A stretch of 59,331 bases of DNA, filler included, from Rhizaria sp. SCN 62-66 (lineage: Eukaryota): assembly GCA_001724265.1 (NCBI GenBank). It is 3 parts of 3 records of this genome, joined end to end, with 100 filler letters (N's around TTAATTAATTAA, not from the genome) between each part and the next. Parts side by side here need not be neighbours in the genome. Positions count along the whole stretch, not along the records: positions 39,856 to 59,331 come from MEDY01000463.1; 2 more parts are not named here. One strand, written 5' to 3'. Shown piece by piece: positions 1,061 through 59,331 of this stretch; the stretch's first letter is position 1; every line of letters starts with the position of its first letter. Under the pieces are notes generated by a model that saw nothing but the letters and a program-made list of their open reading frames with translations, searched no databases and had not been told where the DNA came from. The position numbers and the translations under genes are program-made.

Positions 1061-2687
1061 ATGATGAAGGCCATGTTCGAGAGCGCTTTCCGCCCGACTG
1101 AAGTACGTCCTTATTTGCCTCATCTCTGCAACTATCTCTCGTCTTTTCCTCCCCAACTTCCTGTTTGACTTGAGGTCGTGAAAGATTGCTTATTGGCGCT
1201 TGTCACGAAATTGACACTTTTGCTTCTGCTAACATTACGTTATCTCTTCACAACCATTCTTTCTATCTTACCCCTCCAGATCGTGGCGATGCTGAAGCTC
1301 AAGTTCGCTTCCAAGGTCCGCAAGCCCCCGAAGCAGAAGCTTCGCATTCTGGCCAAGGAGCTCACGTACGTCGCACACTCTGTTGCTGCTGTTCTCATTG
1401 ATTTCACCTTTAAGACAATATCACTCTGTCTGTCACACAATCGCGTTTCCCTGCCTGTTACCAGCGCGCAACACACACTCCCACATCCTCACACGCTCCT
1501 GTCTCGTGTTCTTGTTCGTCTTTTGAAGTCCTATCGACTACTGCTATGCGGTGCTTCACAAGGTCTCCCGTTCCTTCACCGTGGTGATCCAGCAGCTGGA
1601 CGATGAGCTCAAGGACCCCGTGTGCATTTTCTACCTCGTACTCCGCGGCCTTGACTCGGTCGAGGACGACATGACCTTCCCTCTGGAGAACAAGCTGCCG
1701 CTGCTGCGGTGCTTCTACGAGAAGCTCGAGCAGCCCGGGTGGAACATCGAGAACGTCGGCGACTCGCCTGACTACCGCGACCTCATGGCCGACTTCGACC
1801 GCGTGATCCCCGCGTACCAGGCGCTCAAGCCCGAGTACCGCGCCGTCATCTCTGACATCACCAAGCGCATGGGCGCCGGCATGGCCGAGTTCGCTGAGCT
1901 TGGCGCCAAGCTGGGCAAGGGCTCCGTCGTCTCGGTCGAGAAGTACAACCTCTACTGCCACTACGTCGCTGGCCTTGTTGGTATCGGTCTCTCGCAGCTT
2001 TTCTCCGCCTCCGGGCTCGAGGCGCCCGAGGTGGCGAAGCAGGAGAAGCTGGCCAACTCGATGGGCCTGTTCCTGCAGAAGACCAACATCATCCGCGACT
2101 ATCTCGAGGATCAGGACCAAGAGCGCACGTGGTGGCCACAGGAGATCTGGGGCCAGTACGCTGACACGCTCGACTGGTTCGGCAAGCACCCCGACTCGCC
2201 GAAGTCGCTCGCGTGCCTCAACCACATGGTGACGGACGCGCTGGCGCATCTGCCCGACTGTGTGGCGTACCTGTCGATGCTCAAGTCGCCCACTATCTTC
2301 GAGTTCTGCGCCGTGCCGCAAGTCATGGCGCTGGCCACGCTCGCCAAGGTGTACAACAACCTCGCTGTGTTCCGGGGCGTCGTCAAGATCCGCAAGGGCT
2401 TCTCATGCGAGATGATGCTTAACTGCAACGATATGGACATGGTGCACTACTACTTCAACTCTCTCAGCGCCGAGTTCCTCGCCAAGACCCCCGCGGCGGA
2501 CCTCGCCAAGAGCACTGTGGGCGCCGTCGCGCTCAAAAACATCGAGACTGCGATGCGCCTGACGCAGGAGGGCAGCGACCGCGTGCGCAAGCGCTCTAAC
2601 TACAAGTTTATCGTGCCCGTCGTCACAGGCGTGCTCGCCGCCGCCGTCGCCTACTACGCCGTCTCCGCGCGCGGCCCTAAGGCGTAA
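1061..2687 (+). CDS. FDFT1: Squalene synthase (farnesyl-diphosphate farnesyltransferase), 3 exons: 1061-1102, 1280-1365, 1529-2687; ~428 aa
   Basis: Motifs include CYAVLHKVSRSF, YLVLRGLDSVEDD, YCHYVAGLVGIGL, MGLFLQKTNIIRDYLED, FCAVPQVMALATL and VKIRKG, plus a C-terminal TM anchor. Two GTACGT..AG introns restore the frame and a typical N-terminus (MMKAMFESAFRPTEIVAMLKLK). Stop is TAA. Confidence 0.96.
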
Positions 2688-18345: not shown

Positions 18346-18376
<31 letters not shown>

Positions 18377-18473
18377 GACGGGCCCAGGCGGGTCCGCGGC
18401 TGCGAGCGCCGTCGGGCGCGGGTCCGCCGCGCTCATGCAGGGCACGCTGCTCACCATGAAGAAGTTCGCGTGA
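13626..18473 (+). CDS. PP2C/PPM-family Ser/Thr phosphatase with ~1200-aa Ala/Ser/Gly-rich C-terminal extension; ~1615 aa (start could lie upstream, ORF open from 13425)
   Basis: All PP2C motifs are present in order: SMQGRRTSMEDAH, VIDGHAG, GATAC, INLGDSRA, LTIDH, SRCFGD, ICCDGVFE, SCDNLS. The catalytic domain spans ~13626-14860. A UBA-like segment (ALGVLRAHDWTPSAAI) lies near 15350. Stop is TGA. Confidence 0.9.
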
Positions 18474-19874: not shown

Positions 19875-19974
19875 NNNNNNNNNNNNNNNNNNNNNNNNNN
19901 NNNNNNNNNNNNNNNNNNTTAATTAATTAANNNNNNNNNNNNNNNNNNNNNNNNNNNNNNNNNNNNNNNNNNNN
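19875..19974. other. Artificial contig-joining linker (44 N + TTAATTAATTAA + 44 N)
   Basis: Exactly 100 bp with a six-frame stop cassette in the middle, identical in structure to 39756-39855. Confidence 0.98.
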
Positions 19975-34063: not shown

Positions 34064-37000
34064 GGTGCAGCGCGAGCGCGCCGACCTGCTGCTCCGCCAA
34101 CAGGCCGCCCTGACCGAGTTTTACGCCGCGACCGTCGGCCCCGCCGAAGAGGCGGCGCGCGCGGTCGAGGCGCGGCTCGCGGCGCAGCTCGCCGACGCGC
34201 GCGCCGCCAGTGAAGTGGGCGACGCTGAGCTGGCTGCGACGGGCGCGGGCGCGGTGCGCGATCTGCTCGCCAGCGGCATCGACGTGCACGCGGCCGCTGC
34301 GGCCGCGGCGCGCGCGGCAGCGGCGCGGGCGGAGCAGGCACAGATGCTGCGGATGCAGGCGCAGATGCAGAGCATGGGCATGGGCATGGGCATGGGGCTC
34401 GGCGGCATGAGCGGCCTCGGCGCCATGGGCGGCTTCGGCGGCGGCTTAAGTGGCTTCAGCGGCTTTGGTGGCGGTCTCAGCAGCGGTCTCAGCGGCGGCA
34501 TGGACATGGGCACAAGGCTTAGTGGGCTCACCAGTGGCGGGCTCGGGCTTGGCACTGCTGGCATCTCCAGTCTCGGCTCTAGCTCTGCGACTCTGAGCGC
34601 TTTCACGGCCGCGATCCCTGCCGCGGGCCCTGTGTTCAGTGCAGTCTGCGCAACGACTGGCATGGCGTCTACCGGGAGCTCCTCTATTGCAAGCTCTGCG
34701 CCGGTGAGCACCGCGATGGATGCCGTCAGCTCCGCTCCGCCGCCGCCAGCCTACACTGCGACCGAGAGCGCCTCTGCGACTGAGGGCGCCAACAACTCAA
34801 GCCCCAGCGCGATCACTAGCTTCAACTCCAACACGTCGGCTGCGACGCCTGCGGGCGCTCCAGAGCCGGCCCTGAGCGTGGACGCTATCTTCGGCCTCGG
34901 CTCTGGTGGCTACACGGTTGAATCGATGATTGCGGCGATGTTAGCGCGCTCTAACGCCGAAGCCGAGGCCGAGGCTGAGGCAGACGCGTTCGGACTCTTC
35001 GGCAGTGGCGGAGATCAAGGCGACAACGCCGTCGAGAAGGACATGTTTGGACTCACGATCTCCCCCAAAACATCGACTAAATCGTTCTTCAACGCGAACA
35101 CCAACCCCAAGGCGAGCTCTAGCTCTCACTCTGGCGCCACGCCAGTGTCAGTGGCGTCGGCGTCGGCAGCGGCAGCTCCCAAGCTGGCTGTCCGCGCTCC
35201 CGCCCCCGCGCCCCCAGTCCTCGTGCCGCCGTCTCTCACCCCGGCGCAGGCCGACGCCCTCGAGCGCGCGCGCCGCGCCCACCACTGGGTGGCGGCCGCG
35301 GCGCCGCTGCTGCCGCTGGTGGCGGAGCGCGTGCTGGTCGTGCGCGACGTCGTCGCCGCGCTGTACGAAGAGCACGCCGCGCTGACGAACGAGATGCGGC
35401 CTGTGGCGGCCGAAAAGGCGGAGTGCCGCAGACACGCGCGCGCGCTCGAGCGCAGGCTCGCACGGCTCAATAAGCGCTTCCGCGCCACCGGCGGCGACGG
35501 TGACGGTGGCAGTCAAAATGACAACGTCGACGGCGACGACAACGGCGCGGACGAGGATGAGGATGGCTATGGCGACGACGACGACGATGACTGCGGGTAC
35601 GGCGAAGATGATGACGACCCCGCTGCCGCGGCCACGGTTGCCGCCTAGGCCGAGTTCCTCCGTGCACGCGAGGCCGAGCTCAGCGCCATCATGTCCGGCA
35701 CCGTCGCCCGCATCAAGGTCGTATACTCCGCCGTGCGCACTTTCAAGGCGCTGCGCATGCGGCTCCGCGCGCTCACCGGCGGCCTCCGCACCGCCGTGCT
35801 TGCCCAGCAGGAGCTGCTCGACGCCGCCGCGCGCGCCGTTGCCTCGGCCGCGGACCGCCGCCGGGTGGCCGCCGCGCTGGCCGCCGAGTCTGCCGCGGCG
35901 GCCGTCGCGGCGCTGCGCTACACCGTTACGCAGACCGGCGCGCCCGCCCTCGCGGCGGTCGAGTGGCGCGCGCTGACGGCCGCGGGCGCGGCGCCCCTGC
36001 TGTGGAGTGCGCGCGAGCTGCGGCTGATCGAGGCCGCGGTCACGGAACCGCTGCCCACCGAGGACGAGGCCGCGGATGTGGAAACGGCAGAGCGCGCCAA
36101 GGCGGCGGCCGCGGAGGCCGTTGCCGCCGCGCTTGCGGCCGGCCGCGGCAGTGACAAGAGGGGTGGCGACGCGGATGCGGAAGCTGACGCGGACGCCGAG
36201 GCTCAGACGCAAACTCGGACTGTGGCTCAAAGCAATGAGTACGATCGTTCTCAGGATCACGATCGTGGGAACAGTTCCGAGCAAGGCCACGCCGGCGACG
36301 ATTATGATCACGATCACGAAAACGAAGACGGTGACGATGACGGTAACGATCACAGCGACGACGATGAAGACGACGAGGAGGAGGACGGCAATCGCGCACC
36401 GCGTCAGCATCTGCAGCAGCAACAGCAGCAGCAGCAGCGCGTGCGATTGGATCCTGCTGCTTACAGTCACCTGAGCCGTGAAGAGGCGCGCGCCGCGATG
36501 AAACGCGACCGCCAGCGCGAGCGCCGCCGTCTTCGCCGCGAGGCCGAGCTGGCCGCTGCCGCTCCCGCCGCCAACACCAAGACCCAGATGGCGACTGCGA
36601 GTGTACCTGCGGCTATGAACTGTGAGGCCAAGGCAACGCCGAAGGCCGGGCACACTTCCGCCGAAGCCAGCCACCACGGCAGCCCCGACAATGACAACGG
36701 TAACAGCGGCGGCAACGGCAGTGTTCATGAGTGCGTGGGCGCTTCGTGGTGCCCCGTGGTGCAGCTGCTGATCAAAGAGGCCGACGGCGAGCGCGACACG
36801 CGCCGTGAACGCGAGTCCCGTCTCGCGGCCAAACTGGCCGACATCCGCGCCACCGCGGCGTCGGGCACGGTGCAGCCGGGCAGTAAGCAGCACGGCGCGC
36901 AGATCAACTCGGCCAACCAAGTCCGCGCCATCGTCGCCGTCACGCGGTACCGTGAGTTCATGTTGCGCGAGGCCGTGCGCGCGCACGGGCGCCGCGGCGG

Positions 37001-39755: not shown

Positions 39756-39855
39756 NNNNNNNNNNNNNNNNNNNNNNNNNNNNNNNNNNNNNNNNNNNNT
39801 TAATTAATTAANNNNNNNNNNNNNNNNNNNNNNNNNNNNNNNNNNNNNNNNNNNN
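39756..39855. other. Artificial contig-joining linker (44 N + TTAATTAATTAA + 44 N)
   Basis: Same 100-bp structure as 19875-19974. Confidence 0.98.
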
Positions 39856-41017: not shown

Positions 41018-44000
41018 TCAATTATCGTCGTCGTCATCGTCTAAGTATGTTGTGAACGCGACCATTTGCGGCGAGCCACGACCTTGGGTCTTCTGCGGCG
41101 CAGCGCCCGCCAAAAACATGACTCCCTTCGCAGTCACGGTGCCTACTGATGCCGGCGGTGCCGGTGCAAGTGCAGGTGCAGGTGTCGCATCGCCAGCGCC
41201 ACCTTGAGTGCGATTGAAACTCTCGGCGTCAGCGTCAGCGTCAGCTTCAGCGTCGGCGTCGAGTAGCAGTGGCGAGAGAACGACGGTGCGCACGCTCTCA
41301 CCAACGCTGATGGTGCTATTGTTGTCGCTGATGCTGTTGCTGCGGCTGTTGCTGCTGTGGAACATGCGCGGGTGCGGCTGCACGGGCGCGCGCGAGACGG
41401 GCAGGGGTGACAGCGAAAGCGGCCCCGTGTCCGCGCCAGACGCCGTGGTGAAGACCACTGAAGCAACGGCCGGGGGCGGAACGGAGGGTGCGGCCACGAT
41501 CGCGCCCACAGTCAATCTCGCGCTCGTGGTGACTGCAGCAGGCACAGGTAGGGACATTGGCAGGACCGGTGCGAACAATTGCACCTGCGTCTGCGTCTGC
41601 GTCTGCGTCTGCGCTGACTGCGACTGCACGTGCGAGTTTAAGCGCAGGTGCGACTGCGCGCGCGAGCCCATCGGGGAGTGTGACGCCGAGCCCGACTGCG
41701 ACTGTGTCTCTGGCAGCAATTGTGGCAGCGACTGAGAGACGGGCACCAAGTCATGGGAGGAGCCTAAGGCTGAGGCCGAGCCTGCTGAGCTGAAGTGCGG
41801 CATGGAGGCCACGCTTTGCGAGCCCGTGACTGCGACATGAGCTAACTCAGTAACGGGCATTGACGCGGGAGCTGTTGTTGCCGTCGAGCCTTCACTCTCG
41901 ACAGAGCCGGAGCTGTGGCCCGTGCCGCTGGGGGAGGCGGCCAGCGTCGCGGTCGCAGGTACAGCGTTATAGGTGCCTGCGGAAGGATACATCGCACTGC
42001 CGCTGTTGCTATGGCTGCTGCCGTTGAGGTGATATGGAGTTGCCTTGGCGGGGCCTGCCAGTGTGCGAGTCGTCATTACGGGGGTGACTGAGTGCGAGTT
42101 CGTAGCAGAGTGAACAACAGGATGTGGCGGCAGCGGCGGCTGTGCGCCAGCCAGCAGCCCTGAGGTCGAGGAGGTCGACATGGTCGGCGCTGCGGCAAGC
42201 GACCGGTAGTGCATCTGCGCCGACTGCGACTGGGGCAGCGCCGTCGACCCCGCGGCCGCAGTGCTGGCCGTGCTGCCCGCAGCCGGCGTGACGGGGGCGA
42301 GCGTGGAGATGGATTGTGAGGTGGCCAGGGGCGGGTACAGCGGCGTCGCGAGCACGCCTGCGCACCCCGCAGCTCCCGCCACAACGTGACTGTGGCCAAC
42401 AAGACTGTGTCCGCCGTAGCTGTAGCCACCGGGTTGTCCATAGAGACCCGAGTACGCGACGCGAGAGGTGATTGCGGACGCAGGGCCGAGGCGCGACACG
42501 AGCGCAAAGCCTGAGGTCGGGCCAAGCGTCGATACGATCGCGGGCTCGCGATCGGGCCGCGAGCCGCCGCGGGGACTGGGCACACGCCGGGCCTGCGAGT
42601 CGACGTCGGTGCCGGGCAGCGCGGGTGCGGAGACAAAGGCCGAAGCCACGCATGTGACGGTGTTTGTCGACATGATGTCATCGCGGTCACGGTCGGGGTA
42701 GGCGTCAGCCTCGCCTTGGGCGATAACATCTGCGTCGTGCTCCATGTCGGGGGAAGGAGATAAAATGGGACCGAGCAAGCTATGACCAAGACTGAGACCG
42801 ATTCCATGAGCGGGGCCTTGAGCATGATCTTGAGGCTGTACCAACCCAAGTTGCACGTCTCCATCCTGTTCCAGGCAATGCGCCAGTTCTTGTGCTTCAG
42901 CAGTCGCCAGCGCGTTCACACAATGACGAGCACCATCACCATCACCTGCACCCGCAGCAGCAGAGCCTATGTCGACACCTTCAGTCATGACAGCGGTGTT
43001 GCCAGCTGTTATGCTTCTTGTAGCGGTGAAATTGACCGTCATTCCTGCAGCAGCGCTGACGGCACCATCACGCGGAGTCGAACTGTCGTGCACGCCAATG
43101 GCGGGCGACAAATTCGTCACTTCATCATTCGTCGCTTCAGCTACCGGGGACAGCGACAGCGTCGGTGCGACAGCAGGAACGGATCCGTGCTGACTGCTAC
43201 CACTGGGGGTACTGTTGCCATCAGAGTAGTACTGATCGTTAGCAGTGATGTTGTAGCCGTGCTCTATAGCGACATGATTAAACATGACGCCACGCTGCTG
43301 TTGCTGCTGTTGCAGCACTTGCTGCTGTTGCGCGTACAAATTGTGCTGCCGTTCATGATGCAATGCAAAAGAGTCGGACCCAGCACCGTTGTTAACTACA
43401 GCTGCAAATGGGTGCCCCGCAGCCATAGCAGCGGCTGGGTGAGCGTGCCCCAATCTTGCACCCAGTCCGAGTCTGACACTAGGAGCAAGACTGATGCCAG
43501 GGATGCCGCTGTGTACAGGGAGTTGACCATCCTGGTTGTTGCCGACAACGTTGCTGTTGTTGTTGCGCGCATTACCAGGCCACGCCGGCGCGACATCCTG
43601 CGCCGTTGGAAACGACAGCATCGGTGCAGTGCGTGCATGTCCTTGATCCGGGGGCGCAATGTCGTGGCGTTCACCACCCGCAGCGGCTGCCACCACACGC
43701 GCAACAGGTGCAGCACGGCGCGGGAGTGGGGCGTCAGCATGGCGCTTATTGCGGCGACGGTGCTCCGCAATAGGCATCGCAGAGGCGCCCACGCCCGTGC
43801 CAGCAGTCGCGACCGCGCGCGAGACGGGGCCACCGGTGCGGCGTAGTGCGCGCGCGCCGCGCGCAGCTGCAGCGCGCGTGAGACGGCGCGCCTCTTCAAC
43901 ACATAGCGACTGCGGTAGCGAGAGCGAGGCGTGCGCAGGCATTGCCGACAGCGACAGAAGACAAGTCCCATCACACTCCGCACCGCTGTTCTTGACACCG

Positions 44001-47000
44001 GACCGCGCGCGCTCTTGAGCGAGTTGGCGCAAGATCAGCGGCAGTGGCTTAGGCAGCGCGGTGGAGTCCGCGCCTGGAAGCTTAAGCGGAACGAGCTGAG
44101 GACCCTCGGCCCCGCATACACAGAGCGCAAGCGGAAGCCGAATAGGCGGCAGCAACGCTGCCGCCGGCGTGGGCTGTCCCTCTGCCGCAAAAGCACGCGC
44201 CATCTCGAGCGAGACAAGCGGCGCGTGCGGCGACAGCGTAAGTTCGCCGAACTGCGTGATGTACAGCGGCAGCGGCTCCCACGGGCGTGCACATGCCGCG
44301 GCGGGCACGCCGTGCCGCTCGATCGCGACAAGCACGTGAGTTGCGAGCGAGAGAGAACGCGCGCGCAGTGACGTCTTGCTGGTCAGAAGTGACAACCCCG
44401 AATGAACAGCGGTCGCAGCCACACCCACTGCAGCCACAGTAGGACCTTCATGGCCCGGAAGTGGCGACGCAGTCATCCTATTGTACGGGCCCGCGTTCAA
44501 GGCAAGCTTGGTCGCGCTAGGACCAGCGCCCGTGAAGGATGACGGCGCCATACTGCCAGGTGGAGGCGAGGCGCCGAGTAGATAGTGCGCTCCGCCAGCG
44601 TTAGAGATAAAGTCTCCGTGTGCAGCGCCAAGTAGTGATCCACCAAGAGCAGCGTGATTTGGCGCAGCGGATTGGGCAGTCGGGGGCCGCCCACGCCCGT
44701 CGTAGAGCGAATCGACCGAGAATGCGCACGAACCACCTCGAGAGTTCAGCTCGTTACTTTGATTGTAGCCAAAAGCGGGAGTCTGTGAGGCGCAAGGGTC
44801 ATAATTGACAGGAAAGTTGTAGATCGCGTTGGCGTTGGCGCTGTTGGAGTTGTAATGTCCCGAGTTAAGACTCGCGAGAGCGTTGTCAACACCAAGACTG
44901 CCAACGCGCGCAAGTGCTTGCGATGGCAGCGGACACGCAGCCACAGCACCTGCAGCAGCAGCGGGGCCGATATATGGACTAAGGGGTTCTCCATCGGGCC
45001 CAACTGCATTAAAGTTCATACAAGCGTTGCCCGAGTTGGCCGCGGCCGCGGCAGCGGCGGCAGCAGCGATGGCGAGCGACGGTGTTGGACCAGGTGAAAC
45101 GACCGGGCCGCACGAGAGAGCAACTGCAATGCTGTCGGCCAGGCGTGTGCGTGTACAGGATGAGATACGAGCCACGCGGCGCTGGCCGACAGGGCAGAGC
45201 TGAGCTGTAGTTACAATAGCGGCGCCAATTGCGTAGAAAATCGGCTCCAGCACCACCATAGCGATGACAACACCACCAATCATCGCCAGAAGTGCAAACG
45301 CCGATGTTACACCAGGCACCGCGTCCGCGCCGCCGAGCTGCATGGCGCCGCTGAACGTAGCCAGGATAAGGACGACAAAAAAGACGGCTGTACAGACCCA
45401 AAGCACAACGCGCAGCGGTGCCACCTGATGCGGGGGCTTTACTACAGGAGCTGCTGCTGCAGGCGGCACGGGCGGGTCACTGGAGCGTTGACAGACGCCA
45501 AAAAAGCAGTTAGCGCGTGCGCGCCGCGCAGGCGCGGTGTAAGAAGCAACGAGACTGTCCTGCAACGGTGCCAGAGCCACGTGCTCGCGCAACAGCGCGG
45601 CTAGATACACTTCGGCGCGTGCAGGCCCGCTCAACGCGGCCTCGGCACTAGAGGCCGCGGTGATCATGCCAACAGCGTCAGTTGCGCGCAGTTTGCTACC
45701 GCGAGGCCCGATATGTGTGGCTGTGACCTTGGGATCATTGATGACAGCACTCTCAGAGTCGCACTCCGCACCAGCTGTGCCGCGCGTCGCAGTGCCGCGG
45801 GGGCTTGCGCGAGGGCTCGGCTGTGTCTGACCGCGCATCTGGGCAGGCGCAAGCGTATTTGCGCGCATATTCGGGCTGGGACTGCGGCTGGTGATGACGG
45901 GTGCAGATTGTGCAGCTGAAAGCCCAGAAGAGTGTACGTCGCTGCCATACGTCGCCAAAGATGCGCTTCCACGAGCATCAACCCTGCGCTGCACGAGCAC
46001 AGGGACTGGGATCGCGGAAGGACTCCGGCGTGCGTCAGAGTTGCGCCGGCCGCTTAGGCGAGTACTACTGTTGCCGCTCAGTCCGCTGGCGTGGCCTGTG
46101 TCGCTAGTGCCTGTGCTGGAGTGAATTGTCAGCGCAGCAGGTGGATGACGCATGCGCGGCGCTGCAGTAGAGCTCTGCATCCGTGTGTCAGGCTCAGGCA
46201 AAGAATCCGTTGTATCAAACTCGGCGTCTGAGTCGGCCCATCCCGCGCCGGCAGTGGCTGTGGGGTGGGCGCTTGAGCCAGCGTCGTTCTGTGCGGCCCG
46301 AAGTAGCGCAGCGTGCTCGCGGTACAGGGCCCTTGTGAGTGCAGCTTGTTTGTTTGCATAGGCACCGGCGTCGCGATCAAATGACCGCAGCCACGCGTGC
46401 GAGGGAAGTCGCAGAAGGCGTGCAAAAGCAGAGGTTTGCGTGAGCACAGGGGCACCAGCCTGAGCGGTTTGCGCGTCGTTATCTTCGTCGTCTTCACCGG
46501 GCATGCCGTATGCGTGCGGCGCGTGTGCGTGGGCCATTGCGTACGGATATGCGCGCATGTGCGCGAGCGCAAACGACGACGGGACGATGTCACTGCCGCC
46601 GACAGCGCCGGAAGTGGCATTTGCAGCCAACGCTTCGACTGGCGGCGCGTTGTCCGAGGTGAATGCAGAGGCGAGCGTCGAACCGAAATGTGACAGGTGC
46701 GGAGCATCAGCCCCAACTTCAGACCGTACATTGCGCTGTGATTGAAACACGTGCTGCGACGCCGACGCCGCGGGTATACGTCCTCCCGTTGCTGGCTGTC
46801 CACGAGGATGCGTTTGGCCATTACCATAAGCTGGGATGGCGTCACCGTCGCCGTCACCCTCACTTTCCCTATCAGCGGCGATGTCTGCAAACATAGACCG
46901 CCTCTGCGGCCCGTTGGCAGGGCGAAGAGTAACGCGACGCACAGTTTTATTGCGGCGCGGGCGCCCAGCGTTAAGCGCGAAGCCTGAAGTCGCGCCCACG

Positions 47001-50000
47001 CCAAAGCGGAAGCCGTAGCCAGGCATCAGAGCGTCCCATGCACCCACGCTGTCAATTGACTGCGGATTGCTCATGGACTGATGCTGATGTTGTTGCGGTG
47101 CACTGCCGTTCGAGAGCACAATACCGCGCACACCGCTGTGACTGGTTGTGTGCGCTGGATTTGATGATGACAAGTTGGAACTGTTACTGTTGCGCACTGG
47201 TGGCAGGAAGGTGTCCGTGTATGTCGTCGGCAGCAACGGCGGCTGGGGCGGAGGTAACGGCGCGTCGTTGCGGCCATTGTCATTCACAGCAACTCGCGGG
47301 GATGCACGTGGCGCGCCTGCCATGTTGACCGAGCCATTCGCAGCGTTGTTGCCAAGAAAGCGACGCGGACGGTTCAGGCCACTTCCACCAAGCGCATGTA
47401 TCGGTGATGCAGATGGTGACCGACGCGGGGTGCTGCCAGCAAGGCGTGAACCCGTGTTGGGACTGCGGAAGCGTTCACGACCGCGTGTGACAACACCACT
47501 ACTACGCTTGCCACCGCGTGGCCCACGATCACTGTCGCCGTTGGATGGTGATCGGTTGGGCATGTTAGGGTTTCCAGAGCTATTCGTATTACGCGTCTGC
47601 GTAACCTTAGATGGGGCGCGCGAGCCGCGTAAAGCGCGGTGCGAAGCGCGACCCGCGCGGTGCGAGCTTTTATCAGCACCTGATTGCGCAGAATCAAACG
47701 TATCATCGTAGTCGTCATCAGCCTCTGCACTGTGTGAAATATTAGCGCCAGCAGAGCCATCGTTCCCGGCCTTGAGCGCGGCCTCAACTAGTTGCTGCGC
47801 ATGTTTCATGTCTGCAACTTCATCAGCGATGGCTTCTTCACCCCACGCAGCACCACGTGCAATGAGATCAAGGCCGGATGTAACGCCACCTTGAGGACGC
47901 AGCGCAAGCAGACGGATGGCCTCCATGCGCGTGAACACGGAGGTGAGTCCAGTGTGGTAGAGTAATGCGACTTGTTCTGCATACGTGAAAACAAAGCGTT
48001 TGAGCCTCCCTGGGTCAGCGCGTGAGTATAACCGAGCGAGCACGCACGACAAAAGCATGAAGGCCACCGCGGCGGCACAAGCCGCAACAAGGAGCACAGG
48101 CAGCGCGCCAGTGCCGTGATGCACGCGCACCCACGGAGTCGCGTCTTCCGCGACCGGCGTCTGCGTGTCTGCAACAATTTCCACCACGGTGAAATATGAG
48201 CCAAGTATATCCGCTCCATAAGGGCCGGCGAACCACAGCGCAGCACACAGCGCGCCCGTGAGCGCGGTGGTAAGCACCAGCACGCGCTCTGCCGATGTGT
48301 AGGTGTCTGTATAGTCGCGCGTGAAGACGGACATCAGCGAGTGCGAACTTCGGAGCCGTTGCTTCGTGCGGCGCCCGCAAGTTATGAGACACCAGCAGAA
48401 TTGACAACGAGCCGGCTTGGCGTGCGCGGCAGAGGCCGTCCTGGACTGTGTTGTCGCCATGATAGGAGGCGTGACGATCGAGGCAGAGGGCGGGATGTGC
48501 GTCATCTGCTCTTTGCGCGCAGGCGAGTCTGGTGCAAACGGGGTCGCCGGCGGTGCGAGGGGGCCAGGAGAAGATGCGACACCGCCTCCCCACTCACAGT
48601 CACCAGCACTTCTGCGGCCGTCGTAACAGTAGCTGTCACCATTGTGGTCGTAGTTTGCGTTATGGTTGGCATCATCGAGACTACCGTCCCGCGCTGACTG
48701 GCCCCAGTGCGTGGCTCCCCAGTGCGTGGCGGGCTGTTCGCGGCTGTGCGCAGCGCGGGATCTCTCTTCGTCTGACGGCGCGCGCATTGACACAGAGGAA
48801 CCATGCACATCTATGCGATGAGGTTGACGTTGCTGCTGCAGCTGCTGCCGCAGTTGCTGCGGCGGTGACGGCGACGCGAGAGGCCGGTCACGGCTATTGC
48901 TGGGGTCATCGCCGCCGTCACCAGACTCATGACTCGCGCTGAGCGGCGGTAAAGTGGCACCTGTCACACGTGACGTCAATGAGCGCAGACTATGCGCGTC
49001 AGTCACCGCGACCGAGGGCACAACCTGCGAGGGTCCGACGAGAGAGTTACCAACGTACGACTGAGTCGCCAATGATGGCGCATCAAGTGACGGCGCAACA
49101 GCGCTAGAGTGGCGCGAGCGTCCACCGTTGCGTTTGGCCCTGCCAGAGTTGGTCGCAGATGACGCAGATGAGAACGAGTCCACAGAAGATGCACTGGGCG
49201 CGAGCGAGTTTGTTGCATTGGCAGAGTGGGGTACGGAGTTGGCGAGCGCGGACACAATGGCAAGATTTTCACCCGCAGTCACAGGCTCTGTAGAACAGCT
49301 AGTTTTCTCCTTCGCAGCAATTTCTGCGGCTGCGACCGCAGCCACCGCAGTTGCAAGCTGCACAAAAGCATCATCGAGCGGGCCATTTGTCGGGTCTGCG
49401 GGCAGCAAAGTCCAGCGTGTTGAGAGATCGCACAATGCTTGGGTATCGAGCTTAAGATCAAGCGTAACCGTGGCTTGTAGCGGACCCACAATGGCAAGTG
49501 CAAGAAGCACGATGAGCGCGATGAGGATGATGGGCGCAGACTCAGCAAGCCAAACGAGTGACAACGTCCGCATCGTTTGCTTTGGCGGCACAGGCGCGTA
49601 GTTACGCAGGGTCATGGGTGACAGCACACCGGAGCCGACGAGGAACGAGTCCTGCGATCGTGCGCGCACAATGCCCACCGACGCCGAACCCCGGCACGCT
49701 ATCGAGATGCCAGACGGAAGCTTATCCAGCCCATAAACGCTTGCGGACACAGTCGGTGCACACGTTGCAGCTGTTGCCGGAGTCGTTGCTGTCACGGTCG
49801 TCGAGTCCGCGCTGCTTGTCGTTCTTGTTGATGTAGTGCGCGTGAAACTCGACACACGCTGCTTCTGCGTTGCGAGCGTGGACACGCGCGGACTTTGAAC
49901 GCTGATTGAGGATACAGCGACATCGCCAACATTACCACTTTCGTCATCAGTATCAGAGATACTGTTCTCATCAACATTAATCGAGTTTGTATCCACATCC

Positions 50001-53000
50001 CCGGATGCCCACAGTGAACTCTCTGATGCAAGCGGAGACGCAAGGAACTGCCATAGCGCGCCAGGCTCAGCGGTGACAGTCGAGGAGTCCGTGTCGCTCA
50101 TGGATGACGACACGCTCCCACCTGTGGACGTGTTAGCGGCCACAGACCATTCCCACGAGACACCGGGCACAGCGGTTGTCGTTGACGAGCTGTCCGCCGG
50201 CAGCGCCGGGAGCGTGAAGAGCTGCTCTGCCGAGATAACATTCCGCAACACAGACTGAGAAAGCAATTGAGGCACAGGAGATGTCCCTGCAAACGCGCGC
50301 GGGGGAGATTCGTTTGTACTACCATTGCTGCTCAAATTGCTGCTATCGCCGCTGGTTTCACTTGTGGTCCCATATTCCGTCAGGGTGACCGTGCGAGGAA
50401 ACCAGTATGTCACAGCAAAGCGCCCGCCAAAGTCGAGTCGACGTAGCGCATCGGCAGTCGCAGATGGCAGTTTAGTGTAAGGTACATCTTCAGTCGGGAC
50501 CGCGTAAAAGGTGTGAAAGGGGTTGTGAGACTTTGCGTCATCAGTTATTTGCGTGAGTACACCTTTGCGGCCGCGATAAGGCAACGAGACATGACCTGTG
50601 TTCGGAGGCGCTCCGCGCAAATGCGGCAAAGCTGCGGTAGCCATGCGTGTGGTGTTCACTGTCGCGGAGGCAAACAAAGAAGCGTTGCGCGTGGTATCAT
50701 TGCGATTGGCCATCAAAGATTGCGTGGCTATCCCTGTTGAGGTTTGGAAAAACTGTGCTTCCTCGACTATGGCAATTTCCAGCGCGCTTGCCACGTCTAG
50801 CGCGCCATCTGGCAGGAATGGCAACAAACCGCGCGTGCCTGCAGGCGCTGAAGGAGCCATTTCGCGAACGAATACACGCACGTTAAGTGCCGGAGACGAC
50901 GCGGAAGGATCAAACCAGCTTGCGCGGTATTTAGACCCAGTCGTTGTGGTACTTACTCTTGTTCCAACCCGTGGACCCGTATTTGCTTTGGTACTCGCAG
51001 TGCTAACGTCACTGGCGCCCCAAATACGGGTCCAGAGCCCACGCGCAAGGGCGACGAACCCCGTATCAGCACTGTCATCGGCGGTGCTAGTATCAGCGCT
51101 TACGTCAACACTTTCATCGGTGTTCGCGGTTGCGTCAGCGGCCATGTTTTTCGAGCTGGTGCTGCTGCTGACGGTAGTGGTGCTGCGAGTATCTAATCCG
51201 TCGGACGAGTTGGAGATTGCAACAGTCGGAGCGGGCACAGTCGACGAGCCTGAAAAGTTGATCACAGACGAGATAATCTCAGTGACCAAGTCATCATCCG
51301 TAAATGCACCACCAGGTCCTGTGCCGACGCGGTCCTGACCGCCACCGAGCTTGATGTACCGACGCGCGGCAGCGAGTTGCGTGCGCACAAGCGTAATCTG
51401 ATCCGTCTTAAGAGCTGTGAGACTCGAAATGAACTCAGATCCACGGCCAGCCGCAGCGGCAGGGACGGGCGACGCAACCTGTGCAAGCACTACGTCAACG
51501 ACGGAGACATGGCGGCGGGCTAGGAAGCGGAACAACGAGTGCGGTAGCCACACCAGCGGCGCAGCCAGAGTATGAGGTGCCGCAGGGATATCGGTGCTTG
51601 TGGTCGTTGTCCACGTGGTTTTCGCGCGAGACGCAAATGTCTTAGATGCGGTCTTCTTGATCACGGGTTCAGTCTTCTTTGTCGCAGTCGCAGTCTGCGT
51701 CCTGGCTGTGCTTGCAGCTTTTGAGGTCATCCGAGACCGCGACGCAGCTGATTTCTTGCGAACGCGAAGAGCGTCAAACATTGGTTGCGCATCTTGAGAG
51801 TCCGTCTGAGAGTCGGCCACAGATGTGGTGGTCGTGCGCAGCGGCAACTGCACCGCTGCGTCGCGCATGCGCACAGGAGCCGCAATTCGAAGTGCACGTC
51901 CAGTGACAGTCTGCGCAGTAACATCAACACGCAACGAGCGCACAGCGAACCCACCCGCGGCGGCATTGCGCACGGGCTTTCCATCGTATGTGTAAGCCTC
52001 CGTCGATATGGGTTGGGGCTGGTCGAGAAGGTTTGTGTCCGGGTGCGAAGCATATCCGAGGGTCCAAAAGTCAGGTGCTTTGTCAGCCTCTGTCAGCGAG
52101 GCTACAGGATCAGCGGCGGATGCAAATGCAGGGTCAATCTCACATGTGACAACGGCACAGGTAATTTCACGCACAAGTGAAGGCGAAAGCCGGACAGAAG
52201 GTGCGCCGGTCTGAATAAGACCGCGGCCGAGTTGTACGCCAGCAGCAAGAACGGAATCAAGCACAGAGGTTGCTTCGAACGACGCTAGAAGCACTGCGCG
52301 CGCACCGGGAATTGCGCGCACAAGACCAAGCGCAGTCTTTGAAACAGTGTCACTGACTGTCGTAGTCGTGCGCGGACCGAGTGTGTTGACAGACTTCTGC
52401 TTTTGCTTCAACTGTGATAAACCGCTTGCCTTAGCGCTCGCAGCCATCGCAGAAAGCTTAGAAGCAGAGCTTGTTTTAGCACTAGCGGCAACAGAATCCG
52501 CTGCAATCTCAGCCTCAGACAGAAGATGACGAATACGGGCATCGTGCAACAGCTCCGTCACAACAGACTCCGTGGCGTAGTTGCTTGCCTCAAGCTGCAG
52601 TGTCACTGCACGTAGGACCAGCTCCAACACACGTGCCACTGCTGCAAACGTGTCTTCGACAATCAGACGTGAGCCACGGCCAATAACAGGTATGGCGTAT
52701 GATGAAAAGGAACCACCAAGCACACCACTGGTCTCATTGCCAGTGCGGCCCGCATCCCCTACCATGGCGGCATCAGTACGCAGACGCACATCTTGCCACT
52801 GATTCGCGGGCGGCGCGCCGGGCATTGGGCCACTTGAGGGATTATACGGCACGTCACCAACAACGAGCTGGAGCTGCCAGCGTAGCAAAGCTAACACGCG
52901 TGCACGCGCGGCAGGCAAGCGCAACAGTGTCGGTGTGACCGTCATAGTAATAAGGTGTAGCGCGGCGTGCGAAGAGAGACGCGTGGTCAAAACTGGCGTG

Positions 53001-56000
53001 GTCTGGTTTGAAGTTTCAACGGAAATTACAGTTCCGTTAAGGGCAATATCGTTAAGCGGCGAAGAGTGCGACAGTGGAATAGGAGTGTTCATGCGGATCG
53101 ACTGCTCGTCATGTGGCACGGCAGCGCGGGAAACTTCGCTGCGTTGACCAGGTGTTGCATCTTCGGTCGTCGCAAGTTGCGGTGCATGTTCAGCAAGGAG
53201 TGAAAGAAGCTTGAGTGCACGTCGTGTTGACGAGTCGTTGGCAATGTGCTCCGACACGGGCGCAACGTACTGCAACGCGTTAAGCGGTGCCACAAGCTCT
53301 GCGCCAGGGAGATACGGGACAATGTCGAACAAACGCCCAACAGCTGCCAGCGTTGCCGCCTCCGCCTCCCACGGCAGTGCAATCGGAAGTGAGGTCGGTG
53401 CGACTGTCCCATTACTATTGTGAGTAGAGATCCTATCAGAGTCGACAGCAGTAGTTTTAGCCTCGTTCTCAGCAGCCAGTGCAACAGCAACAAGATTAGC
53501 GCGCGCGGCGTAAATTGATGCCTCTGCGGTGGCAGCCAATGCCAGAGTCTGCATTTGCATGTCCGCGTTCTTCATTGCAGTCTTGGCAACAGTGGAGTAG
53601 GCCTCAGCTGCGGCTTCAGCGCGGTCAAGGATGCCACGCGCAACCGTGTAATGAGACGTGTTGGGTCCAGGTACAGGTGCAACAGCGGGGACAGGGACTG
53701 CGGGGAGTGTAATTGTCACTCGTTGCGATGACTTAGAGCCACTGCGCGAGTACACACTCACCATAACCTCAACAATGTCATTTTCGCCTGTCACCGTCCC
53801 GTCCGGAAGCGGCAGCCCTGGAGGCGGACGAGGAACCGAGACAACAAAGTATGGCAGCTGCTGCCAAGGTCCGCCCTCGAGCTCCAGTCCTTGAGCGGCC
53901 CAAGGTGAATTTGGCGCGCCTATAGGTCCCGGATTGATGTGCTGTGCAGCATAGGCAACTGCTTGCTCGAGAGTTGGACTGCGCGCAGTCCAGTGATACT
54001 CAAGAGGGTTCTCCTCAGCATCAAATGCCCCACCACCACACACAATCCCGACAACGGCGTGTAACGGCTCCACCAACGCAGTGATGTTACCCCACGGTGC
54101 AGAAATAAGACCACCCGTAAAAGGAATGATGTCTGCGTCGCGTTGGAGCGAAAGAGACTCGAGCGACAACTGCCGGCACGAGCCGTGCTTAGGCGCTGGA
54201 GGCAGTTGCACGCGCACCGCCGCCGAGTGTAGTGGACGCGCGAGTGCCACAGCGGCACGAAGAGCACTTGCCCACGCGTCGGTTGATACGAGTCCGCCGT
54301 CAACAGGACTAATCAGCGGAGTCAGAATTGCGACTGTAGCTTCCGCAGCTTCGCGCGCAAGCGTAGTGGGGCCTGGAGTTGAAGTTTGCGCAAGCTGCGA
54401 CGTGACGAGTGCGCCAAGAATATTAGAGACGACGTTTGTGACCGTAGTAAGATCAAAAGCAGCTGCCTCTAACACGTACGTCACACCGGGGAGCAATTGC
54501 GATGTGCGAAGAACAAGCGACTCGCCGTACGTCACGCTTGACAGGGCCAGCTCAGCTGATGCAGTCTTGCCAAAGAGTGGCGCCATTGCAGTGGGTAGCG
54601 CAACTTCGACTGCTGCAGCAAATGCAGCTGCGATCGTGCTATTGGCTACGCCTGCAGCCGCCGCAGCACTCTTCACCGACATCGTGGCCGCGGTGACGAT
54701 CGCCTGCCGCAGCCGAGTCAGCGCGAGCGGCGCGCCGGGCGCCATAACCTTAGCTGGGTCACCCAGAAAAAGCTCTGATGAGGCCAGCATGTCTGCACCT
54801 TTGATTGCTTCATCGGACTGATCACCAGAAGACTGCGAGTTACGTACCGCGGCGCGGCGTGTCGTAGATGGGGTGTCGTCCGCGGCGACGTTGGCTGTGA
54901 CCGTGCGCCAGCGGATAAAGAGGTTAGAGCGCACGCGCGCAACGTGATCGATGCTATTTGGGTCACAGTCCGCAGGCGCAGTGCTCTTTAGACACTCGAG
55001 AGCGCCCGCGTTGCTAACGTGAACATCGGCGTTGAGGTGCACACCTGCTCCGACACCGTTGGCGCTCGTGCGGGGACCTGTCGCAACTCGCGGCACAATG
55101 ACCACACGCAGCGCTGTGGCGATGCCAGCTGCGGCAGAGGCAGCGAGTACGGGTGCCCGCGGTGACGGTGCGTTATCACTGAGCGCAGCCGCAGCCTCTG
55201 CGCTGGGCGGAGGCACTGTGCGACGAAGTCGGAGCGTCACACTGGCGCGCTCTTGAGATGTCTGAACACGCGAAGCCCAAGAGGCTGCGCGAGGCGCAGA
55301 CACACTGTCGTCATTAACACCGACGCCCTCCTGGCCAGGCAAGTATGGCGCAGCTGTGAGCGTAAACGTGACCTCGACTGCAGTTGCGGTGGGTCCCATA
55401 AGAAGCGAAACAAGCTCTGGCGGAACGAACAGTTGCTCGTTAACGTCGCCTCGAACAGAAGTTGTACCGGAAGCGTATTTGGCTTCAAGGCGTGCTGCAA
55501 GTTCAATACCCGCGGTTGTGCCAAACAACGGAGAGGACACCGCAACTGGTTGAAAGCACGGCTAAGACGGGCCCAGCGGAGATGCACCACCACCCCAGTC
55601 GTACATTGGCGACCACTGCGCGCGTTGCAATGCGTCAGCCGGTGAGATACGAGCGTTGACGCCCAGACGGCGACGTACAGTGCAGTTCCAGCGGTACTCA
55701 ACAGCGAAGGGTCGCATAGTGGAGTTCAATGTACCATCAAGGTAAGTTGCATGTGCAGAGAGCCTGATGCCACTGGGCGCAGGAACAAAAAGCAGCGGCG
55801 TTGTAGGCGTAACAACGGTGATGCGCGGATGAATGGTGCCTGGCAGGACACGGACAGTGATGGTCTCAGTGGACGATAGCGAGGACGATGGCTGCGCATC
55901 GGATGTCAGCGGTGTTTGCGTTACAGTTGCGGAGAACGTGTACGTTGAGCCAGGCTGAAGTGAGCGTGGTGGCAACAACAGCATGCGTGCCATAGCGATA

Positions 56001-59000
56001 GCACTGCCGTCACGCAATACCTCAACAGTGGGACCAATATCAACGTTCCATCGGTGCGATAACGCATGTGTTTGTGCTGTCGCATTCAGTGAGAAGCGCG
56101 ACATAGCCATCAGCACGAGCGGTGTGTCAGCCAAGGCGTGAAGGTAACGCATACCCGTCGAAGTATCCAAGAGTACAGCGTCAAGGTTAGTGGACATCGG
56201 CGCACCAGCGGGCGCAAAGACTGAGGGGTCTGCTGCCGTGCTGCTGATGGAGGCCAGCGTTGCGCGTCCACCAAGCCCGGCTGCGGCGTACTCCGCGTCG
56301 CGCAGAGGAAGACTTTGCGAGATAATACTAATCTGTGGTGCAATGCGCGCAAGACGGACGAGGGGCATTGTGCACGACGAGCTCTGACCGAGCCAGTTGA
56401 TGATAACAAGCCGCACTTGGTGCGTCATGCCGGGCGGGAACAAGGCGTCAGCTGAGTCAGCATCGATGTACAGCGAAGGCAGCGGCGCGGGCGAAGATGT
56501 CGTCGTGAAAGGCACGCCGATACGCGTCGGCGTGTAGATGGAAGCGTACTCAGCAAACGCTGCGGTCAGAACACCTGTTGGATCACCACTTTGAGCAACA
56601 AGCTCAAAATTGTACTGCAGTAAACGGCCTGCACCACCACGGGAAAGACCACCGGCGATTGCGATGGGAGTCCCATAGCCAGACATCGTGGGGAATGTTA
56701 GCCGCGCCCTGACAGGTGACCAGCGAGAAAGGTCACGGCTGTGCTCGGGAAGCAGTCCGACACCCGGAGAACTCAGCGGCGCATTGTCCATCACAAGCTC
56801 AGGCATCTGTGTGTCAGCAAGCCGCGGCAGCGATGTGGGTGCGTCCGGGATAACGAGAATCAAAGGACCTAAAGCAGGAAACCCCGTCCAACTGCCATCC
56901 TCGCCATCACCAGTGTCGTCACCATCGTCATTAAAGTCAGATTCAGACGTCAGCGCAACAGCAACGCGTGGAATAATCAAACACGCAGGCGGGATAAAGT
57001 CAACACGCGGGTTCGCTGACAGAGGCTCGACTTCGCTTGCAGTGAGCCGCGCATCGCGCAGCCACGCATCAGCGGCCAACGCAGGCGGTTCCTGCGCCAC
57101 AGCAGCAAAGGAGGGCGTCTCGGCCTGGGTTGAACATACCGACTGCACCAGCTCCACGGGCCACGGGTAGCCGAGCGCAAAGGCTGCGGCCGCGGCAGGA
57201 CAACCACGCATGAGGTCCAGCGGCAGCCGGCGCGTGTCCATCGGGATGCGGTCCGCTTGTAGCGCGATTGTCGCCACAGCCCCGGGCTCCACGACAGACG
57301 AGCCAATAAGGGATGCCGGAGATAGTTTGTGGTTGACGCCGAGCGCAATGGTCAGTGTGTAGGCGCTGGACCAGTAGCACTTCGCATCCGTCCCACCAAT
57401 CGCGGCGAGTGACGCGGGCGCAATCAGAGCCTGACACGTCGCGTACGAAGACACTGCAGCAACGCTAGATGGCTCGAACGTGGAGCCTTCAACAATAGTG
57501 TAGGCCATCGCACGCGCCCGAGCCCGCGAGTTTGCCCGCTTTGTTGCGCCACCGATACGTTGAGCGATACCGCGACCACGTGGTGTTGCAGTGCCTGCGC
57601 GCGCCGCTGTTTTCCGAGGAGCAGTGACCTTGGCCTCAGCTGTGATGAAGGCGGTCTTGGGCTCAGACTGAGCGCTCAACTCCTCGTTTGTGTCACCATC
57701 AACTTCTGAGTTTGATGGGCTATTAACACCGGTGCCATCATCATCAGAGTCGTTTTCAACAGGCTCTTCGTCATCAATCGGGTCAGAGGTGTCGTTATCG
57801 TCGTCGTTGTCGAGGCTTCTCGCCTTGCCGCTGGTAGTGTCACTATCAGTGCTATTGGTGCCAGTGCTGTTGCTGCTGTCAGAAGTCGGGAGCGGCTCAA
57901 ACTCAGAGCTAGTGCGGGGAACTTCGCCCGCAGGCTGCTGTGCAAAGTCAGAGAAAGCGCTATCAGGCATGAACGCCGGCGCCGACGACCATGCCATGTT
58001 TATCGGAGGGACGGATGCGGCAGGCATGGTTGTGGGATGCGAGAATGTCGCTCGTGCGGTGAGCAAGTATGGATCAAAATCAAGCCGCATCGCGCGCAGC
58101 TTTCCGACACATACAACCTGCGAGCCGCTCCAGCGGCCATCCGAACCACAGACGCGACTCACTGTGGTCTTGTTGGCATCAGGGAAAGCGGGAAACTCCG
58201 TCCGCGCAGCGCGCACGCCGCGTGGAGGCAGTAGAGGCGTATAGCCTTCCTCACAACCGAGCTCAGCAACAGTGCCGACAGCGTAGCGCTCGTCGGCCGA
58301 AGACGGATCAAACGCACCCGGGCTTTGAGTGTAAACGGGCTTGATACCCCACGCCGGCAACAGCGAGTCGAGCGACGAGCACGACGCAGGCACACAGCGA
58401 ATCGCGGAAGCTACGGGCACAGACCACGCGCCTGTCGGAAGACATTCGAGCACGGACAACATCGATGCATCAGCTGCCGCAGCTGCGTTTACGGCACCAC
58501 GCAGCCGGAGTGCAGATAACCGAGCGCGCGTGTCGGGGCCCAACGACGAAAATGAAAACCCGGCGGTCGTGTCCGCAGCATTGGCTGTTGAGAACACAGG
58601 CAGTGTCGACTCCTCCAGCCACGCGCGCGCCGAGTACACCGACGCGGCGACGTTGGGGTCGGCCTGCAGTGCAGCTTTGGTGAGCTTTTCTGTCGGAATA
58701 TCCATCAGTTCGCCCAGCACAGCAGGGTCGTATCCAGGAACAAAGCCCGTGGGGCAGCTGGCGAGTCCAAGAGTGCCAATGCTGTACCCCGTCGTATGCG
58801 GGACCATGGGCGCAGTGTACGTGCGGACCACAAGGTCGTAGGCCAAGTCGGGAGCTGGAGAATCACCGCCGTCAGAGACCGCGACCGGGATGGATGACGA
58901 CGTGGGGACTGCCAAAGTCAGCGAGGCGCCTGGAGTGGACTGCAAAAGGCCGGTTAGCAGCGGACACTGGACGGGGTAACACGTCCATACAGTGCTCCAG

Positions 59001-59254
59001 TCAACTGTTGCCATGGCGCCCGTCGCAGGTGTTGTATCATCCACTGGCGGGGGCACCGTGGGCACTGTGACGTTGGCGGCAGCCATTGCGCGGACAGTTG
59101 CAGACGTCGGACCCCACCCCACTCCTGTCGTGCTGCCGCAGTACAGCTCCACGCCGCGCGGCATCGTCACCGAGATGTGGGACGCAGCACTGGGGTCTGA
59201 TGCATTTCTTGGTCCACTATTAACTGAGGACAGATAACCCCTATGTAGCGTCAA
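41018..59254 (-). CDS. Giant polycystin-1/REJ-like membrane receptor with N-terminal Sushi (CCP) modules, >=6078 aa, 5' probably incomplete, one in-frame TAG at 55562-55564
   Basis: Sushi-like module: C..GTVAELGCEEGY..RVCGSDGRWSGSQVVC. REJ/PKD-like strands: LQPGSTYTFSATV, YRWNC..PCF, LLPGVTYVLEA, PPAPKHGSC..PLEYHW. TM segments and polycystin-type motifs: HSLMSVFTRDYTDTYTSAERVLVL..ALWF and VVIAMVVLEPI. ORFs 55562-59254 and 41018-55540 are in frame across one TAG. Stop is TGA. Confidence 0.8.
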
Positions 59255-59331
59255 CTAAAAAACGCGATTTCGCGCTTTTTTTGCGACTTTGGCGCACTTT
59301 CGTAGAAGTTATCAAACTACGTGGTTTATTT

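Follow-up and report, generated by a model that had tools for sequence, protein, structure and literature searches.

UAG as a rare sense codon, probably for glutamate, in the nuclear genome of Rhizaria sp. SCN 62-66

In the uncultured, unicellular eukaryote assembled as Rhizaria sp. SCN 62-66 (GCA_001724265.1), the codon UAG almost certainly serves as a sense codon throughout the genome and, in the reading that we hold to be probable as a whole, specifies glutamate in a variant nuclear code that retains UAA and UGA as stops. The stretch under study, hereafter the window, comprises 59,331 nucleotides and joins artificially three contigs (G000: C461, C462 by order, C463) of this 34.9-Mb, 714-contig assembly; it carries on its minus strand a giant gene for a membrane protein with an in-frame TAG at 55562..55564. 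A preliminary description of the window had regarded this TAG as the strongest single site for UAG as a sense codon. The underlying proposal holds genome-wide, and a tRNA with the decoding CUA anticodon has been found; the ranking of the site does not stand, as it has no homologs, failed the both-sides coding filter described below and is silent on the amino acid. TAG codons in the eRF1 gene and in kinase genes are far stronger evidence for a sense UAG.

Use of TAG across the genome

About 1.02 Mb of sequence was read, window included. A three-periodic coding model was trained, and stop codons were tested wherever the 25 codons before them resembled coding sequence. At such positions the frame closes at 67 of 68 TAA and at 66 of 66 TGA codons, while the 39 TAGs are divided between 17 after which coding continues, 5 intermediate cases and 17 apparent ends. 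Twelve of these 17 ends were examined and include no clear gene end at TAG, four being antisense artefacts, two lying at or in introns, one continuing and five being short open reading frames (ORFs). Where 50 coding codons are found on both sides, 28 TAGs stand against 2 TAAs, which are doubtful, and 2 TGAs; one of the 28 (L128) may belong to the opposite strand. An unselected 200-kb block holds 12 TAG codons versus 1,876 GAA or GAG, with no TGA in frame, and UAG amounts to about 0.6% of glutamate codons. The next base is G after 36 of 68 TAA, 32 of 66 TGA and 10 of 39 TAG codons. The codes in which both UAA and UAG are glutamate (NCBI tables 30 and 31) were considered and rejected, in-frame TAA being absent from the 200-kb block and represented by the 2 doubtful cases in all.

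The eRF1 gene, four kinase domains, TOR and a USP have exonic TAGs flanked on either side by homology without gaps. Among 11 kinase matches with a TAG, 5 are exonic and 6 intronic; the TOR kinase gene has its in-frame TAG in the HEAT region (L197:8002-8004, on G000:C4), for a segment of which a homolog search returned none within the length range. Ten dynein heavy-chain loci, with 35,034 codons in their longest frames, contain 7 TAGs, which are uninformative on the residue because all are intronic or upstream, and the dynein exons, whose codon use is strongly biased, hold no TAG in about 33,000 codons. Matches with a stop number 0 of 149 for WD40, 0 of 20 for ABC and 1 of 43 for DEAD, with 1 TAG in 51 for kinesin, and the TAGs met in searches for WD40, ABC, DEAD, kinesin, myosin, UCH and MFS proteins lie mostly at intron ends; a codon-phase pattern search gave 344 matches, swamped by serine repeats. 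The pattern of TAG occurrence, the sites with homology and the absence from dynein together lead to the conclusion that UAG is a rare sense codon, with UAA and UGA as the stops.

The decoding tRNA, the release factor and the residue

The genome has a single tRNA gene with a CUA anticodon. It is located on a nuclear contig (G000:C84:76,0xx; L032:1490-1562, minus strand), between GC-rich genes and with a T-run terminator behind it. Four genome pattern searches, which covered intron-less genes, revealed neither a further CUA tRNA nor any UUA or UCA tRNA; the Rfam tRNA search scored 63 of 506 candidates. The 73-nucleotide (nt) tRNA has a 4-nt variable loop, is identical to the organism's own tRNA-Glu(CUC) at 47/73 positions, to tRNA-Glu(UUC) at 40/73 and to tRNA-Gln at 29-33/73, and shares its first five acceptor pairs with both own tRNA-Glu. 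Compared with E. coli genomes, it finds tRNA-Glu in 10 of the 10 best rows, with 51/73 identical; in phages, 21 of the best 30 rows are annotated, and 17 of these are tRNA-Glu. A 22-nt stretch of its D-arm recurs unchanged in 19 prokaryote genomes; tRNA calls were obtained at 18 of these 19 loci, and at 17 of them, as in E. coli, ARAGORN places the stretch in a tRNA-Glu, with 51-55/73 positions identical to the CUA tRNA, figures that are biased upward because the loci were chosen by the shared stretch. By every comparison of its sequence, the CUA tRNA is a tRNA-Glu. The ‘Pyl’ label that ARAGORN gives to it derives from the anticodon only; the sequence is tRNA-Glu-like. The molecule has a mosaic look, combining a bacterial-type D-arm with acceptor and T stems like those of the host cytosolic tRNA-Glu; acquisition from a bacterium or a mitochondrion is possible, as is a retained older eukaryotic D-arm. 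It has C32-A38, where the own tRNA-Glu have C32-C38, and the accessible text of a study of human tRNA-Glu(CUA) reports that C32-A38 raised UAG reading more than 20-fold, with normal charging by glutamyl-tRNA synthetase (GluRS) and about 95% glutamate (PMC12204705).

The only eRF1 gene (G000:C63, minus strand) carries a TAG at codon 107 (L033:1594-1596) and ends in TAA. This TAG is identical in a separate assembly (L110), and a metagenome scan for relatives yielded only one eRF1 copy identical to it, plus three that are distant. The protein keeps E55, NIKS, L69, S70 and YxCxxxF, and has the changes T32S, G57S and T58K in its stop-codon pocket, at positions where 120 homologs have T32 in 120, G57 in 120 and T58 in 119. 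In the accessible parts of the structural and comparative literature, T32 contacts the third stop base (PMC4605324, PMC5681627, PMC5304391), T58-K63 line the pocket (PMC4605324, PMC5681627) and T32G in Iotanema is proposed to weaken UAG binding (PMC5304391); we infer that the three changes lower eRF1 recognition of UAG, and they allow a direct test of how eRF1 discriminates between UAG and UAA. The eRF1 of a relative, P0126 (84% identical), shares T58K and M34V, keeps T32 and G57, has Val at 107, and is a candidate for an earlier stage of the code change.

In the mechanism that we propose, a single-copy, RNA polymerase III-type tRNA-Glu(CUA) charged by GluRS would read UAG, an eRF1 with altered third-base pocket residues would compete poorly at this codon, and UAA would not be read because a CUA anticodon cannot pair with it. 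UAG would be kept rare, as expected of one weak tRNA facing residual termination. A more speculative extension, which we regard as improbable, is an early, self-tuned code in which one tRNA-Glu(CUA), possibly bacterial or mitochondrial, is set against a partly UAG-blind eRF1 and TAG107 provides a feedback loop, since too much termination at UAG would truncate eRF1. The eRF1 exon is strongly biased (GC content at third codon positions, GC3, 0.89) and has 13 Glu-equivalent codons, one of them TAG, and about 2,200 dynein glutamate codons are without TAG. The self-regulation of bacterial RF2 is the counterpart of such a feedback.

An ambiguous code, in which UAG is both glutamate and a part-time stop and the giant gene yields a shed ectodomain as well as a full-length receptor, is rather unlikely, albeit partly compatible with the reading of UAG as glutamate. 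The single CUA tRNA copy versus 8 matches to the own tRNA-Glu(CUC), the rarity of TAG up to its absence from dynein, the intact eRF1 elements listed above and the roughly 5 short ORFs that stop close to a TAG would all suit it. The 12 examined ends, however, lack a clear case, TAG shows no bias towards G at the +4 position, and the TAGs in eRF1 and TOR demand efficient read-through.

Glutamate is likely to be the main residue at UAG, on the strength of the protein comparisons and of the tRNA, which would be charged accordingly. At the human eRF1 position 107, homologs have E in 109, D in 10 and V in 1 of 120, and both paralogs of the kinase L064 have Asp where it has TAG. Summed in bits over 7 sites, the Pfam scores are highest for E (530.9), followed by K (530.1), Q (529.7), S (525.9) and D (525.4), with Y (521.2), L (520.4) and W (515.2) at the lower end. 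The protein comparisons thus exclude leucine, tyrosine and tryptophan and favour glutamate only modestly, glutamine and lysine being still compatible with the Pfam profiles at the TAG sites. Leucine, to which UAG is assigned in Rhizaria sp. exLh, has a very small probability: a possible cercozoan affinity, the Val of the closest eRF1 relative and a context test that ties L and E would agree with it, but its Pfam sum lies 10.5 bits under that of E, eRF1 L69 is kept, unlike in exLh, the 4-nt variable loop of the CUA tRNA differs from the long-armed own tRNA-Leu, and no Leu-type CUA tRNA emerged from the pattern searches.

Several observations weigh against the assignment to glutamate, or against the reading as a whole. 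The codon survey rests on about 3% of the genome, and about 5 short ORFs might still terminate at or near TAG. The CUA tRNA has U31-A39 and A30-U40, not the best-suppressing pairs of the human study, in whose accessible text U31-A39 lowered suppression (PMC12204705). A tree-aware likelihood at eRF1 107, computed with 64 of the 120 homologs, ranks V first, followed by E at -1.0, L at -4.0 and Q at -4.3 (L, Q and K span -4.0 to -4.6), an order that arises because V sits in the closest relative, P0126. The Pfam margin of E over Q and K is only about 1 bit, no hyperconserved, invariant-Glu column was found at a TAG among the sites examined, and the TAG column of TOR is Ser in human and yeast. The neighbour-context score of E minus Q is +3.3, where about +22 would be expected for glutamate and -28 for glutamine. 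Both TAGs of L103 align with CAG (Gln) of paralogs, and several TAG sites lie within Gln-rich runs.

The last two points would fit UAG as glutamine, as in NCBI table 15, Iotanema and some ciliates, or a mixture of Glu, Gln and Lys through mischarging, as would the Pfam sums of Q and K, which trail E by no more than 1.2 bits, and the 17% glutamine inserted by an anticodon-changed E. coli tRNA-Glu, as quoted in the accessible text of PMC12204705. We nonetheless consider these alternatives unlikely. The only CUA tRNA is Glu-derived and does not have the acceptor stem of the own tRNA-Gln, Q occurs at eRF1 107 in none of the 120 homologs and the L064 paralogs have Asp; CAG to TAG, moreover, is a simple transition after which a change of Gln to Glu would presumably be tolerated. 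The L103 sequence itself (L103:1-2085, on G000:C681) is an internally duplicated ORF that encodes a ubiquitin domain and, at its C-terminus, a coiled stretch; its two TAGs derive from CAG, and it may be a mobile or decaying gene.

The giant membrane-protein gene and its in-frame TAG

The flagged TAG is codon 1250 counted from 59311 and most likely encodes glutamate. As the preliminary description had stated, it is in frame on the minus strand, where it joins an upstream 1230-codon frame (55565..59254), with Sushi followed by REJ-like beta repeats, to a downstream part of 4847 codons (41018..55561) that runs to a TGA at 41018-41020. With the TAG read through, a 6,097-codon frame on C463 closes at this TGA; the 5′ end probably lies outside the contig or upstream of an intron that ends at 59255, and elsewhere the 18-kb frame is free of intron breaks. 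The product would be one PKD1-like surface protein of roughly 6,000 residues, with Sushi, REJ-like repeats and about five transmembrane (TM) helices. In a Kyte-Doolittle (KD) scan, the first predicted TM helix covers aa 3260-3278 (49478..49534, minus strand) and further ones start at 48283, 48097, 45409 and 45304 on the same strand; these five hydrophobic segments beyond aa 3000 score as TM (KD >= 2.0) and all lie downstream of the TAG, while a sixth segment, rich in Ala and located at aa 1388, reaches KD 2.08. The claim that a stop here would separate the ectodomain from the TM segments is borne out for the five beyond aa 3000, as is the remark that the downstream ORF lacks a nearby ATG and a signal peptide, the next Met following 55 codons later and no signal-like stretch being found after the TAG in the downstream frame.

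The locus occurs once in G000 (on C463), and the TAG is no assembly artefact: a contig of run X4 (record 3), which belongs to study P3 and not to P1, the possible source, covers 55264-56600 with 0 differences, the codon at 55562-55564 being unchanged. The TAG-truncated ORF product P0121 was found on 6 contigs, and a public protein collection has the giant gene as two entries, P0121 and P0122, one for each half; annotation under the standard code splits genes of this organism, including eRF1 and TOR. As for RNA over the flagged TAG, run X8 gave no true cover, and X5 and X6 only short identical pieces elsewhere. Since the giant gene is weakly biased (GC3 0.59), the flagged site fails the filter that demands coding sequence on both sides.

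REJ repeats typically follow the motif W-x-C ... P-C ... L-x-[IV]-P ... F-T-L-T. The segments quoted in the preliminary description are all present: YRWNCT (55679..55696), which contains C1210, PCFQP (55547..55561), which contains C1252 and adjoins the TAG, QLFVPPEL (55435-55412) and VEVTFTLTA (55378-55352), all on the minus strand. The TAG would be a Glu codon in a 41-residue insertion of a REJ-like repeat, and it does lie between C1210 and C1252, which stand 41 residues apart; the pairing of these cysteines is only putative, the AlphaFold single-sequence model of the TAG-spanning repeat, at a predicted local distance difference test score (pLDDT) of 31.7 and with no fold match, being unusable. 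The placement inside a REJ-type repeat likewise stands in part. In the ESM Atlas, the 265 aa just before the TAG fall into REJ clusters (0.94, 28/30 hits), with a recognition score below the 2300 mark, and the 320 aa after it receive no REJ assignment (best 0.80). The Pfam alignment that had been suggested gave no REJ match to the read-through protein, with 0 families at E<=1 and none of REJ in a rerun at E<=10; Sushi (58235-58309; E=1.2e-4, 22.8 bits) is its only Pfam domain, and GPS and PLAT domains were not matched. A phmmer search with 496 residues over 1.84 billion representatives found only the giant gene's own two halves, and the PDB holds no homologs of the TAG-spanning repeat.

The genome has at least 20 REJ loci, and PF02010 matches 24 places, the flagged locus not among them. 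A second REJ-family gene (G000:C356:25516-26841, plus strand) has one TAG within a strong PF02010 match (E 1e-25). Like PKD1/REJ-family surface proteins (PF02010), the giant protein has a very long ectodomain followed by several TM helices, its ESM features fit REJ clusters and it occurs in a genome with a large REJ family; unlike them, it has no Pfam REJ or GPS/PLAT match, contains long low-complexity insertions and carries a Sushi domain upstream. ‘REJ-like, PKD1-like receptor’ is therefore a fair description of the predicted protein, in which only language-model features point to membership of the REJ family.

The flagged TAG is very likely translated. That the motif is complete ‘only if TAG is translated’, as had been claimed, goes too far, for splicing of 55678-55562 would also join YRWNCT to PCFQ in frame. 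Among 111 predicted introns the main splice donor is GTACGT (48/111; GTACG 80/111), and a perfect in-phase GTACGTCG donor, found for only 0.2-1.7% of control codons, lies 114 nt upstream of the TAG, which could therefore close a 117-nt phase-0 intron (55562..55678, minus strand), independently of the genome-wide code. The length is within range (minimum 114 nt), 37 of 80 introns end in TAG, the last 20 nt are 70% pyrimidine, and, as a further point against translation at such sites, 4 of 35 TAG sites, the flagged one included, have an in-phase GTACG upstream compared with about 3% of controls. The composition of the segment, on the other hand, makes splicing improbable. It has 64% GC, compared with 36 +/- 6% for introns (maximum 51%, n=80), and none of 89 forced introns reaches 58%; its last 40 nt contain 40% G, compared with a maximum of 23%, and its log-likelihood ratio is +30.6, compared with -29.3 +/- 9.1 for introns (maximum -6.4, n=80). 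In-frame codon periodicity fits better by 6.5-12 nats, introns that are both a multiple of three in length and stop-free number just 2 of 80, and GTACGTCG also occurs inside dynein frames.

Translation of UAG as glutamate has also to be weighed against a pseudogene, a nonsense allele, an assembly error or gene-specific programmed read-through under the standard code. The weak codon bias of the gene and the large REJ family could mean that it is dispensable, but explanations of this kind are exceedingly improbable: the letters are the same in the other study, a TAG stands in the only eRF1 gene, and nonsense changes would yield TAA and TGA too, in place of the observed 28, 2 and 2. No stable RNA fold follows the flagged TAG (z 0.31), and the window contains no Rfam match.

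Elsewhere in the window, an in-frame TAG at 7841..7843 (plus strand) joins frames of 349 and 910 codons, and another at 35646..35648 (plus strand), which passes the strict coding filter, joins frames of 682 and 500 codons. A third at 24106..24108 (minus strand) comes after a poly-Gln run and is followed 4 codons later by a TAA (24094-24096), at which, given a sense UAG, the gene would end. The squalene synthase gene (1527..2687, plus strand) ends in TAA, which shows that UAA still serves as a stop. A 1,687-codon low-complexity frame at 13410-18473 (plus strand) opens with a PP2C phosphatase domain. The N linkers at 19875-19974 and 39756-39855 carry a 12-nt TTAA repeat, and frames crossing them are spurious.

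The organism and its place among known codes

The runs that hold the organism are labelled bioreactor or wastewater. Its genome is GC3-rich and intron-bearing, with at least 11 dynein heavy chains. In a squalene synthase tree it falls within a clade that comprises 8 sequences and lacks a named sister with support, and the named hits include Guttulinopsis, Chlorarachnion and Lotharella, but also Ploeotia, which is no more than a hint of cercozoan affinity. Introns of 114-300 nt are AT-rich within the GC-rich genome, with an unusual dominance of the GTACG donor, and many genes lack introns altogether and run for several thousand codons, with long Ala/Ser insertions. The 18S rRNA gene (L100; G000:C706:4459-8903) is about 4.4 kb long and highly divergent, with several long insertions that resemble group I introns, one of them with a His/Cys-rich, ORF-like stretch. 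Divergent ubiquitins (L101, L104, L105, L106) start MS-MQIF, with L-A-N-K replacing T-G-K at 9-11; the extra Ser is, we assume, reminiscent of the rhizarian polyubiquitin insertion, and no polyubiquitin junctions were seen.

UAA and UAG are nearly always reassigned jointly, the few exceptions being to Leu, Gln or Ser. No NCBI table has TAG as E together with TAA as stop, no report of such a code was found in a literature search that left subscription journals and supplements outside its scope, and the accessible parts of two recent Rhizaria papers (PMC12930898, PMC13746701) do not mention UAG as glutamate. UAG as glutamate with UAA and UGA as stops is thus most likely a new variant nuclear code and, if true, one outside the ciliates. 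Because UAG is used so sparingly, the code may represent the intermediate stage in the capture of a stop codon that has long been looked for.

According to the accessible text of the sources, UAG-only nuclear changes comprise those to Leu in Rhizaria sp. exLh, Gln in Iotanema spirale, Leu or Gln in phyllopharyngean ciliates, Gln in Protocruzia tuzeti and Ser in Scotinosphaera (PMC11687900, PMC5304391). As described there, these systems likewise have UAG as sense, UAA and UGA as stops and a CUA tRNA found or predicted; they differ in that the residue is not glutamate and in that UAG is much commoner in them than here, most exLh marker genes containing it. The eRF1 of Iotanema has T32G, compared with T32S, G57S and T58K here, and for exLh and Iotanema the decoding tRNA and release-factor changes are not both in hand, whereas here both are.

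Codes with UAG as glutamate are closer in residue. Oligohymenophorea sp. PL0344 (UAA as Lys, UAG as Glu) likewise has CUA tRNAs derived from tRNA-Glu but, in the accessible account, UAA is sense, UGA is the only stop and there are 10 CUA tRNAs 69-93% like its own tRNA-Glu (PMC10553269), whereas here UAA is a main stop and the one CUA tRNA is 64% like the own tRNA-Glu. The peritrich code (NCBI 30) and the Blastocrithidia code (NCBI 31), as far as their descriptions were available, also have UAG as Glu, but UAA as Glu too. Blastocrithidia avoids reassigned codons in highly expressed genes, as its accessible description relates (PMC12153298), and has a UUA tRNA, of which the pattern searches found none here, where TAA ends nearly all frames. 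The closest parallel to the tRNA itself is engineered: the human amber suppressor tRNA-GluV13, in the available part of its description, shares the tRNA-Glu body, the CUA anticodon and C32-A38, but has G30-C40, whereas the CUA tRNA described here is natural, with a bacterial-like D-arm and A30-U40/U31-A39, and has arrived independently at the C32-A38 solution of therapeutic Glu amber suppressors.

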